The notes: generated from the letters alone by a model not told the origin. Shown: positions 9,881-64,000, numbered from the stretch's first letter. The stretch is DNA of 64,000 bases from Spirulina sp. (GCA_044070495.1 JBIPSI010000010.1:1-64000); one strand, 5' to 3'. A program made the numbers and translations.

Positions 9881-11011
9881 CTAGGCGATAGGCAGGGGCA
9901 CAGCGGTGGACATCAGGCCACTGGGGAACCCAGCCGTGCCGGGGGTACGGGCCTGGTATCGCTGAATTTGGTGGGTAGCAATGTCGCGAGCCGATTGGCC
10001 ACCATAGTAGCCCTGGTAAAATTCCACCACCCACTCTAGGGTATCGGCCAGGGTGAGCCGAGGTTCCCAGCCCAGACGAGCCTTGGCCTTGGAGCAGTCC
10101 AGCTTCAGATAATGGGCTTCGTGGGGATGGGATCCGCCATCCAGTTCCCAGGTGGCCCCGTTACCCCACAGGGTCGTCAGCCGATCCACAATCCAAGATA
10201 CGGGTTTGGCATCGTCGTCTTGGGGGCCAAAGTTCCAGCCGCCCACCAAGTCGGAGCCGTGGTGCCATAGTTTTTCCGCCAGCAGCAGGTAGCCGCCGAG
10301 GGGTTCCAGCACGTGCTGCCAGGGGCGAATGGCGTGGGGATTGCGAATCAGTACGGGTTGCCCAGCATGGAAGGCTTTGATCATATCGGGAATCAGCCGA
10401 TCCAAGGCCCAATCGCCGCCGCCGATGACGTTCCCGGCCCGCACCGAGGCCACCGCCACCCGATGGCTCTCAAAGGTCTCAGGGGCAAAGAAGGACGACC
10501 GATAGGCCGCTGTGACCAGTTCGGCACAGCCCTTGCTGTTGGAGTAGGGATCATGGCCACCCATGGCTTCGTTCTCGCGGTAGCCCCACACCCATTCCCG
10601 GTTTTCGTAGCACTTGTCGCTGGTAATCACCACCGCCACGCGCACACTTGAGGTCTGACGCACCGCCTCCAGCACATGCACAGTACCCATGACGTTGGTG
10701 GCGTAGGTTTCCACCGGGTTCTGGTAGGAGTAGCGCACGAGGGGCTGGGCCGCCAGGTGCAGCACAATCTCCGGCTGGGCCTGGTTCATGGCTTGGGTTA
10801 ACCCCTCCAGATCCCGCACATCGCCCACTAGGGACGTCATCCCATGGGCGACCTGAGCCGCCTCAAACAGGCTGGGATCGGTAGGGGCAGGCTGGGAAAA
10901 CCCCACCACCTCAGCCCCAAGCTGCTGGAGCCAAAGGGAGAGCCAACTGCCCTTAAAGCCCGTGTGTCCGGTGACAAAAACCCGCTTACCCCGCCAAAAA
11001 TTCACATCCAT
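9881..11011 (-). CDS. rfbG: CDP-glucose 4,6-dehydratase
   Basis: VTGHTGFKGSWL, HLAAQPLVR, TSDKCY, YSNSK, RAGNVIGGGD, RPWQHVLEPL. Confidence 0.95.
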   Translation of the reverse strand: MDVNFWRGKRVFVTGHTGFKGSWLSLWLQQLGAEVVGFSQPAPTDPSLFEAAQVAHGMTSLVGDVRDLEGLTQAMNQAQPEIVLHLAAQPLVRYSYQNPVETYATNVMGTVHVLEAVRQTSSVRVAVVITSDKCYENREWVWGYRENEAMGGHDPYSNSKGCAELVTAAYRSSFFAPETFESHRVAVASVRAGNVIGGGDWALDRLIPDMIKAFHAGQPVLIRNPHAIRPWQHVLEPLGGYLLLAEKLWHHGSDLVGGWNFGPQDDDAKPVSWIVDRLTTLWGNGATWELDGGSHPHEAHYLKLDCSKAKARLGWEPRLTLADTLEWVVEFYQGYYGGQSARDIATHQIQRYQARTPGTAGFPSGLMSTAVPLPIA

Positions 11012-16048: not shown

Positions 16049-16509
16049 GGGGTAGACAACATCGGGTCGAGATCTGGGAGAAGACATAGCTGGGGAAAGA
16101 CATCGGGCGAGGACAAAAACCATAGGCAATCCTACTTCCATCATACCCCTGGCTACCCCGACCCTAGGGTTGCGTCAGGGGATCATAAATTCGTGGTCGA
16201 ATGCGACCAATGGGCTAGACTGCGGTATGCTTCAGTGCTATGTCTGGCCTACCCCAGGGGAGGCCTGTTGGGCCATGGATCTTCAGGGTGCATGAAGGCG
16301 TCTTGTGGTAAGGGCTTTAGCCGTCTAGCCAGGGCTTAGGGGGTGATCCCATCGGCGATCTATCTAAACGGCTGCCCCCGTCGCTGACGACTGCCGTCGT
16401 CGGGTGTGAGGATGACGCAACGGTGGGCACGATACCCTGGTAGTAGCCCACGATGTGGTATCGGTGTCGAATTGCGATTTGAGTTCAAGGGTATAACCCC
16501 GCAACGTCT

Positions 16510-19500: not shown

Positions 19501-19659
19501 TTTCTCTTCCGGGATCTCGGTCAGGCTTGGCCCCAGCAGTACGATTATTTTTCTGACCCCAGCCACCTCAACCGCTACGGGGCCTACCAAGTCTCTCAAC
19601 GACTGGCCCAGGATCCTCTCATTGCTTGGCCGAGATCTGCGGCCTCCGCTGCCCCATGA
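16510..19659 (+). CDS. Large membrane protein with C-terminal SGNH-like (DUF1574/DltD/AlgJ-like) domain
   Basis: VLIVGSSRA, NFGINGAT, RAFN, YFSDPSHLN blocks; central TM segment; repeated N-terminal modules. Confidence 0.8.
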   Translation: MPVSFSPSYAPASATAPGILDWLKHHLGLSEADLHIKLRGNILHVLCETAHALDQPTVLLRLVRALLEDREQRWLHQVYPQVYQVYVYSRRQGQPNPDWTAPIYLNRLERHLAQLVLENQDEADLQAAKDLLATYVQDHPDQRQGEAEGGGAIVLSNLSLARKGDPEAIAWYLSETLSALDVGVWVSIKAIPGLAHLHRRAVGTDHPGAEDWPAEGGGTEEEATIPRLWILCEAAYSPDPSLIARPTAERLRLLQLTQFKDAVILLQVRGEAKPDWSLRIDLTPPEEMLREWSRWGDVASLGRLMASMLERYHLTVDPTLNGDTLHVLCQPQREGEGLGAETTVVQAQAEMVETLSSLLEELAPQGICRAILYGQPHPNTDPAWVHYLDLPAAHHSALADSPEYLAQMGDLPAMAFLLTRQLNPNLEDRLATGGQRVQLLRRDQLLHVMVDGPVVPQRRLVAPLLHNYLLSLSPVGLEGVRIYGRRSGQSRPAWSYGRDFSERRRLIPEAAPEFTASDAYVNELLVRPDSPITHAEISPEEEAAALAHWWTAVVDRWQGVLVQSQLFSRAQPLSVLDRASSPQATDGVKIAMVWAAVGVLMAVQVDWFMGQMLRPSANAAKAEPMATLAPSPPDPEAEFAQALSELDWPTGSADPDTEGEGFVSESTTDLFTSPSQPLVALDNLVADSPFATFNSEQLNEKVALYAQRVATEGPADVLIVGSSRALRGVDPEALRRELAALGYENLNIFNFGINGATAQVVDLVLRQVLEPDQLPRLILWADGARAFNSGRDDVTYNAIVASPGYRELLTQRPAVVAAAGDDPAVATEGDSGTHDRSLPQSYAAMDEWISDQMGGFSAAHEDRGVLKTWIQSQLGAVIPAVATEGTVAEEQLDAPMPAGSAVDRDGFLPLSVRFNPATYYQTYARVSGRYDGDYEDFRLDGAQMEALDSLLAFTQDQGIPVVFINTPLSDEYLDDYRQTAEDEFLRYMLTLSTTESGFLFRDLGQAWPQQYDYFSDPSHLNRYGAYQVSQRLAQDPLIAWPRSAASAAP

Positions 19660-21149
19660 TTTTGCCCTCCATCACCTACGCCCTCTTTCTGATCAGCGTC
19701 ATTGGTATTTTTTGGGCGCTGGAGTCGGTTCAGGCTCGGCTGTGGTTGCTGTTGGTGGCCAGCCTGGTGTTCTATGCCTCCCTCCAGGTGCAGTATTTGC
19801 TGCTGATGGTGGCCCTGCTGATGGTCACCTTCTTCATCGGTCAGGCCATCGTGGCTCCCCTCGACTGGCGCACCCCCAGCGCCCAATGGCAGGTGGCCGA
19901 ACAAAGCTGGAACCAGCGCCGTAAACGGTTTCTGTGGCTGGGGATTGGGATTCAGGTGGCCCTGCTGCTGGGCTTTAAGTATCTGGAGGGGGTTTTTCGG
20001 CTCTTGGGCTGGACAGGCACGAGCTTTGGGGGGGCGCGTCTCGGCGATACCTTGACCAGTGTTGTGATGCCCCTAGGGCTGAGCTTCTTTGTGTTTGAGT
20101 GCATCGCCTATCTAGTGGATGTCTACCGAGGCTCCCCCGCCGCCACGAATTTTGTAGACTTTGGGGCCTACAAATTCTTCTTCCCCAAGCTGATCTCTGG
20201 CCCCATCACCCGTTTCCATCCCTTTGTTGACCAGGTGGAACAACCCAAGGCTCCGGGGCTGAATGGGGTTGTGGAAGGACTATGGTTGATCGCCTACGGA
20301 GCCGTGAAAAAGCTGCTGCTGGCCGACCACATCGCCATTTTGGTGAACCTCAGCTTTGACAACTTGCCCCGTGCTGGCAGTGCCGACATCGTTCTGGCGG
20401 TGTTCGCCTACGGCCTCCAGCTTTATCTAGATTTCAGTGCCTATGTCAACATTGCCTGCGGTAGCGCCCTCTTGCTGGGCATCCAACTCCCCGAAAACTT
20501 TGACGCCCCCTACTTCACCACCAGCCTAGCCACCTTTTGGCGACGCTGGCACATCACCCTAGGCGACTGGCTACGCAACTACCTGTATTTCCCCCTGGGG
20601 GGATCCCGCCAGGGCCTAGGGCGCACCTGCCGCAATTTAATGACGGTGATGCTGATTGCCGGGGTGTGGCACGGCAACAACTGGGGTTTCGTGATCTGGG
20701 GTGCCATCCACGGGGCGGGCCTAGTCCTCCACCGCCTTACCCAATCCGGGGGGAAGATCGCTCCTTGGACAGCCCAGTTTTGGCAGAGTATCCCCGGCAC
20801 CCTCCTAGGCTGGATCCTCACCCAAGGACTGGTCTTCTTTAGCTGGCTCTTTTTCCGCCTGCCCGCCCCCGATCAGTTCACCTTGGCCCTGCAACGGCTG
20901 TGGGCCACCCCCGCCGATCCTCAGTTTGTCCAGAAGGTCTACCTCGAATCCTTAGGATTTAGCTACGGGCAGCTATGGCTGCTGCTAGGGGGCCTATTTG
21001 GGCTGATGGGAGTCGCCTACGCCTTCAAACGCGGGCTAAAACTAGAGCTAAGCTGGCCCGTCAAACTCCTGCTCATTCCCCTGTTCAGTCTCCTTGCTTG
21101 GCTGCTGGCCCCCGCCGAAACCCTGAGCTACATCTACTTTGATTTCTAG
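19656..21149 (+). CDS. MBOAT family O-acyltransferase (AlgI/DltB-like)
   Basis: PLGLSFF, FFPKLISGPI, YLDFSAY, PENFDAPY, FWRRWHITL, GVWHG, FIYFDF-like end; ATG 19656 overlaps upstream TGA (ATGA). Confidence 0.93.
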   Translation: MILPSITYALFLISVIGIFWALESVQARLWLLLVASLVFYASLQVQYLLLMVALLMVTFFIGQAIVAPLDWRTPSAQWQVAEQSWNQRRKRFLWLGIGIQVALLLGFKYLEGVFRLLGWTGTSFGGARLGDTLTSVVMPLGLSFFVFECIAYLVDVYRGSPAATNFVDFGAYKFFFPKLISGPITRFHPFVDQVEQPKAPGLNGVVEGLWLIAYGAVKKLLLADHIAILVNLSFDNLPRAGSADIVLAVFAYGLQLYLDFSAYVNIACGSALLLGIQLPENFDAPYFTTSLATFWRRWHITLGDWLRNYLYFPLGGSRQGLGRTCRNLMTVMLIAGVWHGNNWGFVIWGAIHGAGLVLHRLTQSGGKIAPWTAQFWQSIPGTLLGWILTQGLVFFSWLFFRLPAPDQFTLALQRLWATPADPQFVQKVYLESLGFSYGQLWLLLGGLFGLMGVAYAFKRGLKLELSWPVKLLLIPLFSLLAWLLAPAETLSYIYFDF

Positions 21150-21202
21150 TTTGACTTCTAGGGAAACTCTAAACCCCTTAAATTCCTGGTTGTTTTACAA
21201 AA

Positions 21203-21301
21203 CTCGCCAGCAACCAGATTCCTCCAAGGGTCAGGAGACCTGACCCCTACAGGATCCCAATGCGGTAGGGGCGCGGTTGCCGCGTCCGGTGCAGAATCTT
21301 G
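21203..21301 (-). repeat. GTAG-type REP doublet (BIME/REPIN-like), copy 2
   Basis: GGGTCAGGAGACCTGACCCCTAC...GTAGGGGCGCGGTTGCCGCGTCC: two hairpins each flanked by GTAG/CTAC. Confidence 0.8.
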
Positions 21302-21351
21302 TGTCGGCCAAACAGCTTGGATCCCACGTAGCCTGGATTTCAAATCCCAAG

Positions 21352-21404
21352 AAAAAAGCGCCAGAGGACTCTCTGACGCCGGGTGTTGAGGAGTGAACGA
21401 TTAA
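21352..21404 (-). ncRNA. Candidate Yfr1-like small RNA
   Basis: Minus strand TAATCGTTCACTCCTCAACACCCG-GCGTCAGAG-AGTC-CTCTGGCGC-TTTTTT; TAACTT -10-like hexamer at 21415-21410; no upstream minus-strand gene nearby to explain the terminator. Confidence 0.6.
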
Positions 21405-21523
21405 TTCTTAAGTTACGGGGTGGGTATGACGGTGGCATGTTTTCGGTATGTCAACCCTGTGACAATCGCCACCCGTGATGATTCCAGGGACAATAGCCAA
21501 AGAACGTTTCTTGCCCAACCACC

Positions 21524-22309
21524 GTGACCCAGCCCGAAGCCCTACGTACCCTACTCGCCGCCGTTGCCCAGGGGCACGTTAGCCCCGATGCCGCCCTAGA
21601 GCAGTTGAAATACCTGGAATTTGAACCCATCGAAGACTTTGCCAAGGTCGATCATCACCGCACCCTACGGACAGGCTTTCCGGAGGTGATTTGGGGGCCA
21701 GGGAAAACGGTGGATCAAATCGTGCAAATTATGCGCAGTTTGCAGGCCCGTAACCCGGTGGTGATGGCCACCCGCATTGAGGCCGATGTCTACGAGCAAA
21801 TCCGCCAGCAATTGCCCGAAGCCCTGTACTACCCAATGGCCCGCATTTGTGCCCTAGTCCCCCTCAACCTAGCTCCCCATCGACCGGGCACCCTGGGTAT
21901 TCTCACTGCTGGCACAGCGGATCTCCCCGTAGCCGAAGAGGCGGCGGTGACGGCAGAGCTATCCGGCTTTCGCGTCGTGCGGTTGTGGGATGTGGGGGTG
22001 GCGGGGCTGCATCGCCTGTTGCGCCACCAGCACATGATTCGGGAGATGGACGTGCTGATTGTGGTAGCAGGCATGGAGGGAGCCTTACCCAGCGTGGTGG
22101 CGGGCTTGGCGGATTGCCCCATTGTGGCGGTGCCCACCAGCATCGGCTACGGGGCTAGCTTTCAAGGGCTTTCGGCCCTGCTGACCATGCTCAACTCCTG
22201 CGCCGTGGGCATTGGCGTCGTCAATATCGATAACGGCTTTGGCGCGGCGATGCTGGCGGGGCAAATTTTGCGTACTGGGGCGAAGCTGAACAATATTTCT
22301 AATCTGTAA
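21524..22309 (+). CDS. larB: LarB / CpmA family protein (PurE-like fold)
   Basis: FAKVDHHR..RTGFPEVI, AGTADLPVAEEA, DVGVAGLHRL, AGMEGALPSV, VPTSIGYG, VVNIDNGFGAA. Confidence 0.92.
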   Translation: MTQPEALRTLLAAVAQGHVSPDAALEQLKYLEFEPIEDFAKVDHHRTLRTGFPEVIWGPGKTVDQIVQIMRSLQARNPVVMATRIEADVYEQIRQQLPEALYYPMARICALVPLNLAPHRPGTLGILTAGTADLPVAEEAAVTAELSGFRVVRLWDVGVAGLHRLLRHQHMIREMDVLIVVAGMEGALPSVVAGLADCPIVAVPTSIGYGASFQGLSALLTMLNSCAVGIGVVNIDNGFGAAMLAGQILRTGAKLNNISNL

Positions 22310-22376: not shown

Positions 22377-22901
22377 TTAGGCTTCCTGCCAAATCCATTT
22401 GCCCTCTTTCCACAGCGCCACGGCGGCTCCGATGGCGTACTTCACCACAATCTCCCCAAACAACAGCGCTACCATATCCGCCCGCGACAGCACCCCAGCA
22501 AAGGCAATCAGCGTAAACAGCAGGGTATCCAAGGGCACCGAAACCGCATTGCTCCCCGCCACCCGCACCAGCCAGGGATAGCGCAGCAGCTTTTGGTAGA
22601 CCTCAGTATCGGCAGTTTCAGCCAACACAATAGCCACAAAGCTGGCCAAAATAATCCGAAAAGGCACCCCCAGCAGCGCACTCATCAACACATTGGCCAG
22701 GGCCGCCACGGCAATGGTGCCATACACCCAACCCCGTCCGGCTTCGTGGAGGCGATCCCGCTGGGTAAAGGTGAGGCCAAACACAAAGGTACCCACCGCC
22801 ACCTGGCCAAAAATCGGCAGCGGAATAAACCAGGCCGCCGTATAGTTCGCCGCTAAGGTCGCTAGAACGTAGATTGCGCCGTTGATGAGAGATTTATTCA
22901 T
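22377..22901 (-). CDS. VUT family (YhhQ-like, putative queuosine-precursor) transporter
   Basis: Hydrophobic 174 aa; LAANY, GLTF..RD, RIILAS, ETADT.VY, SNAVS.PLDTLLF..IAF. Confidence 0.75.
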   Translation of the reverse strand: MNKSLINGAIYVLATLAANYTAAWFIPLPIFGQVAVGTFVFGLTFTQRDRLHEAGRGWVYGTIAVAALANVLMSALLGVPFRIILASFVAIVLAETADTEVYQKLLRYPWLVRVAGSNAVSVPLDTLLFTLIAFAGVLSRADMVALLFGEIVVKYAIGAAVALWKEGKWIWQEA

Positions 22902-22975
22902 GGAAGGCTCTAAAAGCGAATTGCGAGGAACCATGCCCCCGCAATTGCTGATAATTGAATCAATAGGGTTTGCTT

Positions 22976-23042
22976 AGAACCCAGGGTTGTGGAGAGGGAC
23001 TCGGATATGGGCCTCAGGACTCCTCACAAAACCCTGGGTTCT
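22976..23042. repeat. 13 bp inverted repeat element right after the glsF stop
   Basis: AGAACCCAGGGTT ... AACCCTGGGTTCT with 41 nt spacer. Confidence 0.6.
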
Positions 23043-38388: not shown

Positions 38389-39768
<1,380 letters not shown>

Positions 39769-40025
39769 CTATAAACACGTAGCGCTAGAGGGGACGAGTA
39801 CGGCAGAAGAGGCTAGATTTCAACGAATGCAGAAAATTATGGGGCTATGGCTCGTTGAGAGATGCCTATCTGGTCATAGCAACTGGGCTAAAGTGACCTC
39901 AATATCATTTCCGTAACCAACCATCTATCCACCGTAGCTCGAGGCGAATGCCCACCCATAGATGGGCTAGCCCTAAGCCAGACATATTCTGCAATCGTCG
40001 TTGCGATCTAATGACCTCAAGCAAC

Positions 40026-40100
40026 GCTTCCCTCCGCTGGTACTAACCAGGTCAGGTTCTGAGGGTATGATCTCAGTCCGATTCCTCGGACACCCCTAGC
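40026..40100 (-). promoter_or_regulatory. TPP riboswitch aptamer
   Basis: Minus strand GCTAGGGGTGTCC...CTGAGA..ATACCC..GAACCTGACCTGGTTAGTACCAGCGGAGGGAAGC, upstream of thiC. Confidence 0.92.
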
Positions 40101-40199
40101 TTGCTCGTATGATAGCACGGTCAACTGGTACGCCTTTCACGGCTGACTGAGAGTTATTCCACGGATCAAGGAGGCCACCCATAACTCCTGTTTAGCAGC

Positions 40200-62053: not shown

Positions 62054-62273
62054 TCGTCCATCGAGTTGATCGGCAGAAGATGTCGATCCACCCGTTGATG
62101 GTTATCCCAGTGGTGCCGTTCGCTTGGGCACAACGCAACGGTTTTTCCATGCCCCATGGGCGTTATACCTGCGCAATCGCTTGTCCTAGCCGTTGAAGAC
62201 ACCCTGGGAAACCCAAGGATCTATGGTCATTGAGCACCCATAGATTCTCATTGCAGTAGACCGCTCTTACTTT

Positions 62274-62289
62274 GGTGTGAGGAGAACGA
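62274..62289 (+). promoter_or_regulatory. Yfr1-type sRNA target site overlapping porin ribosome-binding site
   Basis: GGTGTGAGGAGAACGA immediately before ATG; GTGTGAGGAG is complementary to 10 nt of the Yfr1 motif ACUCCUCACAC. Confidence 0.65.
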
Positions 62290-64000
62290 ATGTTGAATAC
62301 AAATGCTTTGGGGATTTCAGCCCGATTGTTAGCCTGGGCCAGCCGTGGTTCGGGATTGTTGGCCACGCTGTTGCTGTTGTTCTCTGCGCTGCCCGCTGCC
62401 GCTGAAGGATTGACCGAAACTGAGCAAGCCGCTCCCCAAGTGGAGGCACTGACTACAGAGGAGGCCCCCCGTACAGCGGATGCCTTGTCTGTAGATCGAC
62501 CTGAAGATCCCCTGGCCGATGCCATCCTGACCACAGAGCCTGTTCTGATGGCCGATGCGTCCGAAGATGCCCTAGGGGTAGACGCCGTGGCCAATGGGGA
62601 GGTTCCTGGCTCTCTGACGGTTGAGGAAACGACGCCCTCCAGTGATCAGATCGCCGATGCTGAGGCCTCTGACGTGGAAGCAACCCCGATGTTCCTGGTC
62701 ACCGACCTGGAATCTGCCCTCGAAAATGATGGTCGCGTTTTGCCCCAGGCGGCTGACTTGGCTCAGGTTACCCAGGTCACCGACTTTACGGATATTTTGC
62801 CCAGCGATTGGGCCTTCCAAGCCTTGAGCAATCTAGTCAACAACTATGGTTGTCTCCAGGGCTATCCGGATCGCACCTTCCGGGGGCAGCGCAGCCTGAC
62901 CCGCTTTGAGTTTGCGGCGGGTCTGAATGCCTGTTTGGATGTGCTCGCGGCCAACCTGAGCATGATTTCCGACGAAGATCTGATTCCCATTCGCCGCCTC
63001 CAGGAGGAATTTGCCGCCGAACTGGCCACCCTGCGCGGTCGAGTGGATGCCCTAGAGGCCGAAACCGCCGAACTAAGCGCTCAGCAGTTTGCCACCCAAA
63101 CCAAACTGCGGGGTTCTGTCTTTTTCAATGTGGGTAGCGGCTTTGCCAATGGCAGCATTCGGGCGGAGGGGAACAGTATCTTTGCAGCGGCTCGCGACCC
63201 CATCACCAATGCCCCGGTAACCCGCACAATCTCCCGCAATCCCAGTCTCACCACTAGCGCGTTGACTTGGATCAACATGGACACCTCCTTCAGCGGTTCC
63301 GACCGCCTGAAGCTTCAGTTTGTGGCCGGGGCGGGTACTTCACCGGCCAACCTCTACGGTTCGGCGGGCTTGTTCAACACCTTTGGCACTCCGTTCACCT
63401 TCCAAACCGGCGGCGTCGATCAGTTTGATGTCACTATTCGCGAACTCAGCTACATGTTCCCCGTGGGGGACAGCCTCACCATTGATGTCGGTGCCCGGAT
63501 CAACTGGTACAGCTACTTCGACAACAACCGCTACACCTTCTTCCTCACCGGGGCCAACAGCTTCAACTCCAGCGGCGGCACCCAGGTGAACACCGTAGAC
63601 CGTGGGGCAGGGGCCATTGCCGTGTGGGATGTGACGGACTGGCTAGACGTACGGGTTGGCTACCTGGCTGAAAGCACCGAATTCCTTCCGGGCCAGCGCG
63701 ATGCGGGCAACCCCACCCGAGGTTTGTTTGGCGGTACCAACACCCTCACGGGGCAGATTGGTCTTCAGCCCTTCAACAACCTCAACCTGCGGCTGCTGTA
63801 TACCCGCTCTAACCTGATGCCCAACGCCGCTGGCCAAATTGGCGGCACCCTCAGCGAACCCATGTATGGTTTTGCCGATAACGGGTTTGGAGGTGCCCTC
63901 ACCAATGCCCCTGCCGATACCTTCCTGGTCAACTTCGACTGGACGCCCCTAAGCTGGCTGGGCCTATTTGGTCGCTACAGCTACGGCAGCGTTAAGCTCA
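62290..64000 (+). CDS. Cyanobacterial SLH-domain outer-membrane porin (OprB/Som type), truncated by window end; absent from the ORF track
   Basis: ATG 62290 after GAGGAG; signal peptide (LPAAA-EG); acidic linker; DWAFQAL..LV..YGC..GYPDRTFRG...TRFEFAAGLNAC; QFATQTKLRG barrel start. Confidence 0.93.
   Translation, partial: MLNTNALGISARLLAWASRGSGLLATLLLLFSALPAAAEGLTETEQAAPQVEALTTEEAPRTADALSVDRPEDPLADAILTTEPVLMADASEDALGVDAVANGEVPGSLTVEETTPSSDQIADAEASDVEATPMFLVTDLESALENDGRVLPQAADLAQVTQVTDFTDILPSDWAFQALSNLVNNYGCLQGYPDRTFRGQRSLTRFEFAAGLNACLDVLAANLSMISDEDLIPIRRLQEEFAAELATLRGRVDALEAETAELSAQQFATQTKLRGSVFFNVGSGFANGSIRAEGNSIFAAARDPITNAPVTRTISRNPSLTTSALTWINMDTSFSGSDRLKLQFVAGAGTSPANLYGSAGLFNTFGTPFTFQTGGVDQFDVTIRELSYMFPVGDSLTIDVGARINWYSYFDNNRYTFFLTGANSFNSSGGTQVNTVDRGAGAIAVWDVTDWLDVRVGYLAESTEFLPGQRDAGNPTRGLFGGTNTLTGQIGLQPFNNLNLRLLYTRSNLMPNAAGQIGGTLSEPMYGFADNGFGGALTNAPADTFLVNFDWTPLSWLGLFGRYSYGSVKL

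Follow-up and report, generated by a model that had tools for sequence, protein, structure and literature searches.

The window analyzed here is a 64,000-nucleotide stretch of Spirulina sp. DNA (GCA_044070495.1 JBIPSI010000010.1:1-64000), in which a predicted small RNA (sRNA) gene lies on the minus strand, divergent to larB and convergent to a gene of the MBOAT family. The features of this locus are as follows:

21352..21402, minus strand: predicted sRNA transcript of ~51 nt (covariance model R1, 63.5 bits; fold), with a putative 5' end
21381..21402, minus strand: single-stranded seed tract AAUCGUUCACUCCUCAACACCC, the Yfr1 motif with an inserted A (CACUCCUCA[A]CACC)
21352..21380, minus strand: Rho-independent terminator, a 10-bp hairpin (21380-21357) plus a U6 tail (21357-21352)
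21410..21415, minus strand: probable -10 box TAACTT, of the form TAnnnT found in 36 of 36 copies
21403..21470, minus strand: conserved upstream module seen in the alignment, with TGTCAC at 21464-21459, TTGACATA at 21454-21447 and GTCATAC at 21430-21424
21524..22309, plus strand: larB, nickel-pincer cofactor biosynthesis (NCBIfam NF033503, 290.8 bits; cutoff 175)
19626..21149, plus strand: MBOAT gene, the convergent neighbor of the sRNA in the window

Read in its own direction, from 21402 to 21352, the candidate consists of an unpaired 22-nt tract followed by a 10-bp GC-rich hairpin and a U6 run. On this strand, UCGUUCACUCCUCAACACC was placed at 21400->21382, and our motif search located ACTCCTCAACAC at 21383-21394. 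The terminator hairpin, GGCGUCAGAG-AGUC-CUCUGGCGCU (21380->21357), contains 10 pairs, one of which is U.G, and ends in a T6 run at 21357-21352. The 51-nt unit folded with a minimum free energy of -16.6 kcal/mol (z = -3.3), a value that none of 200 shuffled sequences equaled, and its first 22 nt remained unpaired. Both the window sequence and the fold confirmed the minus-strand unit that a preliminary description of this DNA had outlined, with its unpaired anti-Shine-Dalgarno tract and a terminator whose G-U pair and U6 tail fix the strand. That description had also assigned the unit a -10-like hexamer of its own; a conserved -10-type box is indeed present, but it is TAACTT at 21415-21410 and not TAAGAAT. 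A consensus scan of 21100-21700 returned no two-hexamer sigma-70 promoter and no -35 partner for TAACTT. In the same interval, this hairpin was the sole terminator-like site (1 found versus 1.0 expected), and Yfr1-like motifs with at most one mismatch numbered two in the window versus 0.23 expected. Taken alone, these window statistics are weak for the candidate sRNA, the significance of which derives from its copies in other genomes. Neither of the small open reading frames (ORFs) at 21158-21343 and 21451-21645, both on the minus strand, had a Pfam match, and no usable ORF followed GAGGAG on the larB-sense strand. The interval that separates the MBOAT gene from the sRNA terminator contains a GC-rich palindrome, GGGTCAGG-TCT-CCTGACCC (21228-21247), which has no T-run on either strand and possibly serves to end transcription of the MBOAT operon.

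A pattern scan of 185,579 genomes with TTCACTCCTCAACAC-N15-45-TTTTT returned 58 loci, 35 of which proved to be further copies of the larB-linked sRNA. All 35 are cyanobacterial and belong to one clade, carrying the labels Nodosilinea (assigned to Nodosilineales by NCBI), Leptolyngbya/Leptolyngbyaceae, Phormidesmidales, Tildeniella, Shackletoniella and Phormidium FACHB, or those of unnamed cyanobacterial or "uncultured bacterium" bins. Covariance model R1, which was built from the family's own 36 sequences (the 35 copies and the window), scored the family at 60-83 bits and the window copy at 63.5 bits, and the 23 other matches at no more than 26.5 bits. These 23 matches were spread over several phyla in approximately the number expected by chance and had no LarB, and they were set aside as chance occurrences, together with the four cyanobacterial loci among them (L003, L015, L035 and L043), which showed neither the family context nor LarB. 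Two of the four, L015 and L035, come from Nostocales genomes and contain (at ~10001-10035, minus strand) a stretch of 17 nt that matches the seed exactly, TTCACTCCTCAACACCC; with no promoter module, hairpin or larB neighbor, and with scores of 21.5 and 21.4 bits, they were treated as unrelated to the family. The sRNA occurs once per locus; neither the window nor the 967 kb of locus sequence (~20 kb per genome) yielded a second copy.

Among the 28 distinct rows in the alignment of these copies, 96.8% of the cells of the terminator helix were paired, compensatory double changes were found in six of nine pairs, and none of 500 column shuffles reached the observed covariation score. Pairing dropped to 34-54% when one partner was slid by 1-3 columns. 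RNAalifold recovered the terminator as the single conserved helix of the family, and the seed is therefore expected to be free. The G.U pairs and the T-run identify the strand reading CACUCCUC as the RNA strand. The seed was invariant over TTCACTCCTCAACAC in all 36 copies, an invariance that arises partly by construction because the pattern demanded these 15 seed nt and a T-run, such that copies with different seeds would have escaped it. Conservation extended to the flanks, which the pattern left free: 34 of 36 copies have AATCG immediately before the demanded stretch, and 32 of 36 have CC immediately after it. A lack of conservation had been named beforehand as an outcome that would speak against the candidate; the search for it yielded 35 further copies and a covarying terminator instead. 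The candidate is thus very probably a real regulatory RNA gene of ~51 bases in one group of filamentous cyanobacteria, and conservation and covariation support its reading as a stand-alone, minus-strand, sRNA-like gene. The literature that we searched contained no description of a larB-linked, Yfr1-like family, which is apparently undescribed. A published screen of sequences preceding orthologous genes across 202 cyanobacteria (PMC12873609) may include a structure upstream of larB. The larB-linked sRNA represents a family beyond the reach of current Rfam models.

The genomic address of the family is as regular as its terminator. A divergent LarB homologue (80-95% identity) was found 87-232 nt from the seed in the window and in 34 of the 35 other loci, the sequence of the remaining locus ending 184 nt upstream. 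The divergent arrangement with larB, noted previously for the window together with the suggestion of a synteny check, accordingly extends to these 34 loci. In three loci (L008, L029 and L044), the longest larB frame extends upstream to ~50 nt from the antisense strand of the sRNA. Between the two genes lies a conserved module of ~65 nt with the layout aaaa-TGTCAC-AGGG-TTGaCATA, ~14 nt, gTGACATAc, ~8 nt, TAnnnT, 7 nt, AATCG. An nhmmer profile of this module gave 36 hits in 967 kb, one per locus and only at the larB-linked sRNA. The TAnnnT box was present in every one of the 36 copies, at a distance to the downstream TTCAC of 12 nt in 34 copies and 11 nt in two. Conservation begins at AATCG (34 of 36 copies), and the bases just upstream of it vary; for this reason, transcription is predicted to start at the A of AAUCG (window position 21402 or 21401), which would yield an RNA of ~51 nt with the seed at its extreme 5' end. 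Part of the module is a palindrome, TGTCA-N6-TGACA, in 24 of 36 copies; in 10 of the 36, it reads TGTCA-N6-TGTCA. The palindromic form was considered as an RNA helix or 5' hairpin and was rejected, since the element is a direct repeat in those 10 copies. RNAalifold, applied to the family alignment from -75 to the 3' end, likewise found no conserved 5' hairpin, bearing out the initial impression that none was evident in the window. The module may be a binding site for a regulatory protein or an alternative-promoter element, common to the divergent larB, and its conservation suggests that expression is regulated rather than constitutive.

The seed invites comparison with Yfr1 (Rfam accession RF01116; PMC12873609). 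Voss et al. (2007; PMC2190773) described Yfr1 as an abundant RNA of 54-69 nt with two stem-loops, a 5' helix of 6-10 bp and a 3' GC-rich hairpin of 6-9 bp with a U tail, which are separated by 16-20 unpaired nt containing a stretch, ACUCCUCACAC, that is perfectly conserved in 31 genomes. In their account, the gene usually lies between guaB and trxA (25 and 27 of 31 genomes), and their Table 2 places it away from these genes in some lineages. The invariant stretch was subsequently extended to CACUCCUCACACC on the basis of 89 genomes (Brenes-Alvarez et al. 2016; PMC4734099), and Yfr1 is described as using this motif to repress porin and envelope/cell-wall mRNAs, the target sites immediately preceding the start codons (PMC6974561). 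The larB-linked sRNA resembles Yfr1 in its near-identical unpaired anti-Shine-Dalgarno motif (CACUCCUCACACC in Yfr1, CACUCCUCAACACC here), in the GC-rich terminator with a U tail that follows the motif (9-10 pairs and U6, with covariation in the six pairs noted above), in its restriction to cyanobacteria, and in the ribosome-binding site of a porin mRNA as target, which is predicted here and has been validated for Yfr1 in Prochlorococcus and Nostoc.

Unlike Yfr1, the larB-linked sRNA carries one additional A within a motif for which invariance was reported in 31 and in 89 genomes. The exact Yfr1 undecanucleotide, ACUCCUCACAC, had no match in the window, where the candidate reads ACUCCUCAACAC; the 13-nt CACUCCUCACACC is present with a single inserted A, just as the 1-nt insertion had first been reported, and this A occurs in 36 of 36 family copies, having been required by the search pattern. 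Further differences are the missing 5' stem-loop, with the motif at the extreme 5' end and an alignment that holds the terminator helix only rather than two stem-loops; a position next to larB and not at guaB/trxA, the latter being a typical rather than obligatory feature of Yfr1; the family's own conserved promoter module; and a predicted length of ~51 nt, counted from the putative start, as against 54-69 nt. The RF01116 model gave no match at E<=10 in the interval 21200-21600, and Rfam models run over the whole window, at both gathering thresholds and E<=1, detected no Yfr1 and no Yfr2, returning only a TPP riboswitch and NsiR1. Across eight family loci (57.6 kb), no RF01116 match reached the gathering threshold of 38 bits. 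Two of these loci gave matches below it, of 24.6 and 21.8 bits. The RF01116 alignment kept both motif and terminator in register, treating the A as an insertion, and represented the 5' hairpin only by a 4-bp pairing spanning 28 nt. The candidate can thus be recognized as a derivative or relative of Yfr1, yet it fails four defining or typical features of that RNA and, by definition, falls outside Yfr1.

Additional sRNAs with the Yfr1 motif are known to coexist with Yfr1, and Lambrecht et al. (2019; PMC6778093) list among them Yfr10, Syr5 of Synechocystis 6803, Yfr104 of MIT9313, and the transcripts from TSS 2515196r and 3750139f of Nostoc 7120. The larB-linked family resembles this class in probably being an extra sRNA gene with a motif derived from that of Yfr1, and it shares with the two Nostoc 7120 examples (63 and 57 nt; PMC4734099, Table S3) a motif near the 5' end that is followed by a terminator hairpin only. 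It differs in its inserted A, where the core of the described members is given as the unaltered CUCCUCACACC, and in its strict synteny with larB across 36 genomes, whereas Yfr10-like sRNAs are characterized as poorly conserved in structure and synteny; Yfr10 itself is reported to hold the motif inside a hairpin loop (PMC6778093). The motif of the candidate is accessible and clearly derived from the Yfr1 motif, yet not identical to it, with the one inserted A setting it apart. Among described RNAs, the candidate comes closest to the additional Yfr1-motif (Yfr10-like) sRNAs, and it probably belongs with them. As such sRNAs already form a described class, the concept is less new than the preliminary description implied.

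N. nodulosa PCC 7104, which carries the larB-linked sRNA (L025), is among the 89 genomes for all of which Brenes-Alvarez et al. (PMC4734099) record a Yfr1 homologue, with CACUCCUCACACC conserved in every one. To count as a homologue in that work, a sequence had to match 35% or more of an 81-nt query in BLASTn, which corresponds to ~28 nt. The candidate and the Nostoc Yfr1 of its Table S3 have ~18 nt in common by visual comparison (CGUUCACUCCUCA[A]CACC), which is too little for the candidate to be the PCC 7104 homologue recorded there. In the same table, neither of the two Nostoc 7120 Yfr1-motif sRNAs has a recorded homologue in PCC 7104. Two indirect lines, the Yfr1 record for PCC 7104 and the perfect complements of the canonical motif in a porin leader and at 16400-16425 of the window, make it likely that the candidate is a sibling of a canonical Yfr1 encoded alongside it. 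The strongest alternative holds that it is instead this clade's own Yfr1 orthologue, relocated to a position beside larB, with the 5' hairpin lost and one base added to the motif. The ~18 nt in common with Nostoc Yfr1, the sub-threshold full-length alignments to the Rfam model and the positions of Yfr1 outside guaB/trxA in some lineages (PMC2190773, Table 2) are compatible with such a history, as is the absence of the canonical motif ACTCCTCACAC from the window and from 967 kb of family-locus sequence; this absence, however, says little because only ~20 kb per genome are covered. Against it stand the Yfr1 recorded for PCC 7104 under a criterion that the candidate sRNA would miss (PMC4734099) and an 11-nt perfect complement of the canonical motif in the leader of a porin gene of the window, which would be expected if a canonical Yfr1 were present. 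We consider an orthologue unlikely on these grounds.

The reading that we favor, and hold to be moderately probable, is that of an independently transcribed, trans-acting RNA of ~51 nt, a lineage-specific Yfr1 relative of the Yfr10-like class encoded back-to-back with larB. An RNA structure at such a fixed address might alternatively act in cis, either as the 5' leader or attenuator of a co-oriented downstream gene or as a regulatory region or 5' untranslated region of larB. The strict linkage to larB and the overlap of the upstream module with the short larB spacer lend this idea some support, as does a co-oriented gene, encoding a small exported protein of ~120 aa, that begins 134-358 nt past the terminator in 27 of the 35 loci. 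In L017, for example, this gene lies 171 nt after the sRNA terminator on the same strand, and its product has a signal-peptide-like N-terminus (M-K/N-R/Q-H-L...). The gene is present in most Nodosilinea-type genomes and nowhere in the window, which has no co-oriented gene downstream of the sRNA; in the window and eight other loci, the downstream gene is a different one, often on the opposite strand. As a target of the sRNA, the exported-protein gene was rejected, its start region pairing inconsistently with the seed (-4 to -17 kcal/mol). Given that the downstream side is not conserved and the pairing is not consistent, a leader or attenuator role cannot explain the whole family, though the RNA may conceivably act as a leader in those 27 loci. 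Read on the larB-sense strand, the hairpin lacks a T-run, and mismatches take the place of its G.U pairs; the complement of the seed is also 87 nt or more away from the start codon of larB. Both points argue against a larB element. A cis-acting role is accordingly quite improbable.

For the trans-acting sRNA that we favor, two sites in the window stand out as complements of its seed or of the canonical Yfr1 motif:

62273..62290, plus strand: predicted target site covering the Shine-Dalgarno sequence as well as the start codon of a porin gene of OprB/Som type (duplex prediction)
16400..16425, plus strand: second canonical Yfr1 complement, GGGUGUGAGGA, ~100 nt upstream of the start (16510) of a DUF1574/MBOAT (DltB/AlgI-like) operon

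The porin gene runs from 62290 to the window end and was identified by Pfam (OprB and SLH) and by NCBIfam as por_somb, "iron uptake porin" (241 bits). Its leader was predicted to form a duplex of 16 bp with the seed at -22.3 kcal/mol, spanning -17..0 relative to the AUG at 62290; the two bulges and the absence of mismatches reproduced the pairing originally proposed. Equally good pairing was obtained with 0.6% of 2000 shuffled seeds, and the inclusion of opening energies gave ~-17 kcal/mol. Of the 47 start regions predicted in the window, the porin leader paired best, 3 kcal/mol ahead of the next, and in a comparison with 524 start regions from related loci, its value lay near the first percentile. 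When all 21,322 segments of the two strands were scored, the site came only ~20th, with G-rich sites ranking higher. The core of the site distinguishes the two seeds, as the canonical 13-mer, for which it is also the best site, reached -21.2 versus -17.4 kcal/mol for the variant 14-mer; the candidate offsets this weaker core at the porin through extra UCGUUC:GAACGA pairs. Over 11 nt, the leader sequence GGUGUGAGGAG is perfectly complementary to the canonical Yfr1 motif and not to the variant. The porin mRNA can thus be regarded as a reasonable predicted target of the candidate, at a site that looks primarily like a classical Yfr1 site and that the candidate could occupy with a bulged A. The earlier suggestion that the candidate shares the Yfr1 envelope regulon stands as a prediction from this one site. 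In the other family loci, the sequence around larB (~20 kb per genome) contained no porin gene.

The site at 16400-16425 would form a more stable duplex with the candidate (-25.3 kcal/mol); it does not lie at a ribosome-binding site and is a possible further target. By arithmetic, ~0.12 10-mers of the GGGUGUGAGGA type would be expected in the window. The second-best start region was that of a Vut_1/queuosine-precursor-transporter gene (22377-22934, minus strand), with -19.3 kcal/mol for the candidate and -17.1 kcal/mol for the canonical motif. Approximately 94 nt upstream of this gene, UUGUGAGGAGU occurs at ~23018-23030 on the minus strand. A small comparative target scan of the 524 start regions in family loci yielded nothing recurrent. 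Its top three hits were discarded as artifacts, having come from over-long larB ORF calls that overlapped the antisense strand of the sRNA.

In the mechanism that these predictions suggest, transcription would begin at the A of AAUCG, 7 nt past the TAnnnT box, and end at the covarying GC-rich terminator, and the unpaired 5' tract CACUCCUCAACACC would pair with ribosome-binding regions of mRNAs and block their translation, by analogy with Yfr1. Within the window, the OprB/Som porin mRNA is the best local candidate for such a target. A canonical Yfr1 is probably encoded in the same genome too. The inserted A would force a bulge on canonical Yfr1 sites, and target preference may consequently shift relative to canonical Yfr1. 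Together with the separate promoter, the insertion could give the two RNAs distinct target weighting or expression conditions, and Yfr10 and Yfr1 are described as differing in a similar manner (PMC6778093). That the RNA should serve mainly as a decoy or sponge, its motif binding a Yfr2-type sRNA or a protein with no direct repression of mRNAs, seems to us decidedly unlikely. In favor of this idea, Yfr2 is reported to pair with and neutralize Yfr1 and Yfr10 in Prochlorococcus, with similar binding in Nostoc (PMC6778093, PMC6974561), and no perfect complement of the variant motif was found in 603 kb of family loci besides the sRNA's own antisense strand. Against it, the window contains no Yfr2/Cyano-1 match and the porin start region pairs well with the seed.

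A bolder extension of the trans-acting reading, which we regard as doubtful, would make the sRNA a conditional, register-shifted paralogue of Yfr1 that is driven with larB from a regulator-controlled bidirectional promoter and, unlike the constitutive Yfr1, tunes the mRNAs of a metal-uptake-type porin and of the envelope. If true, outer-membrane permeability would be coupled to a metal-cofactor (nickel-pincer) pathway, and the "ultraconserved" Yfr1 seed could be re-registered, splitting a regulon. Yfr1 is among the most conserved bacterial sRNAs, with an 11-13 nt motif reported as invariant across the phylum, and the larB-linked family keeps this motif plus one base in at least 36 genomes, with its own promoter module and at a fixed address. 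The family could thereby offer a natural experiment in which a single-base seed change redistributes targets between sibling sRNAs, as well as a handle on conditional control of porins and the envelope in a little-studied order of filamentous cyanobacteria.

The predicted layout also recalls RybB, MicA and OmrA/B of enterobacteria, short sRNAs that use a conserved 5' end to pair with outer-membrane-protein mRNAs in their start regions. The analogy concerns the 5' position of the seed and the envelope targets, which in the candidate are predicted; the enterobacterial sRNAs depend on Hfq and on sigma-E or OmpR, and they are unrelated in sequence to the larB-linked sRNA.

Both Rfam matches of the window lie apart from the larB locus. 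NsiR1 (RF02399) was matched over its full length at 146-200 on the minus strand (50.6 bits; threshold 39), at the window edge, where copies may continue beyond. NsiR1 is a heterocyst-associated sRNA of Nostocales, and the larB region of the genome that contains this match most resembles those of Nodosilinea/Phormidium FACHB-type filaments. The TPP riboswitch (40012-40107, minus strand; 67.9 bits) is located upstream of thiC (38389-39759, minus strand), an ordinary arrangement.
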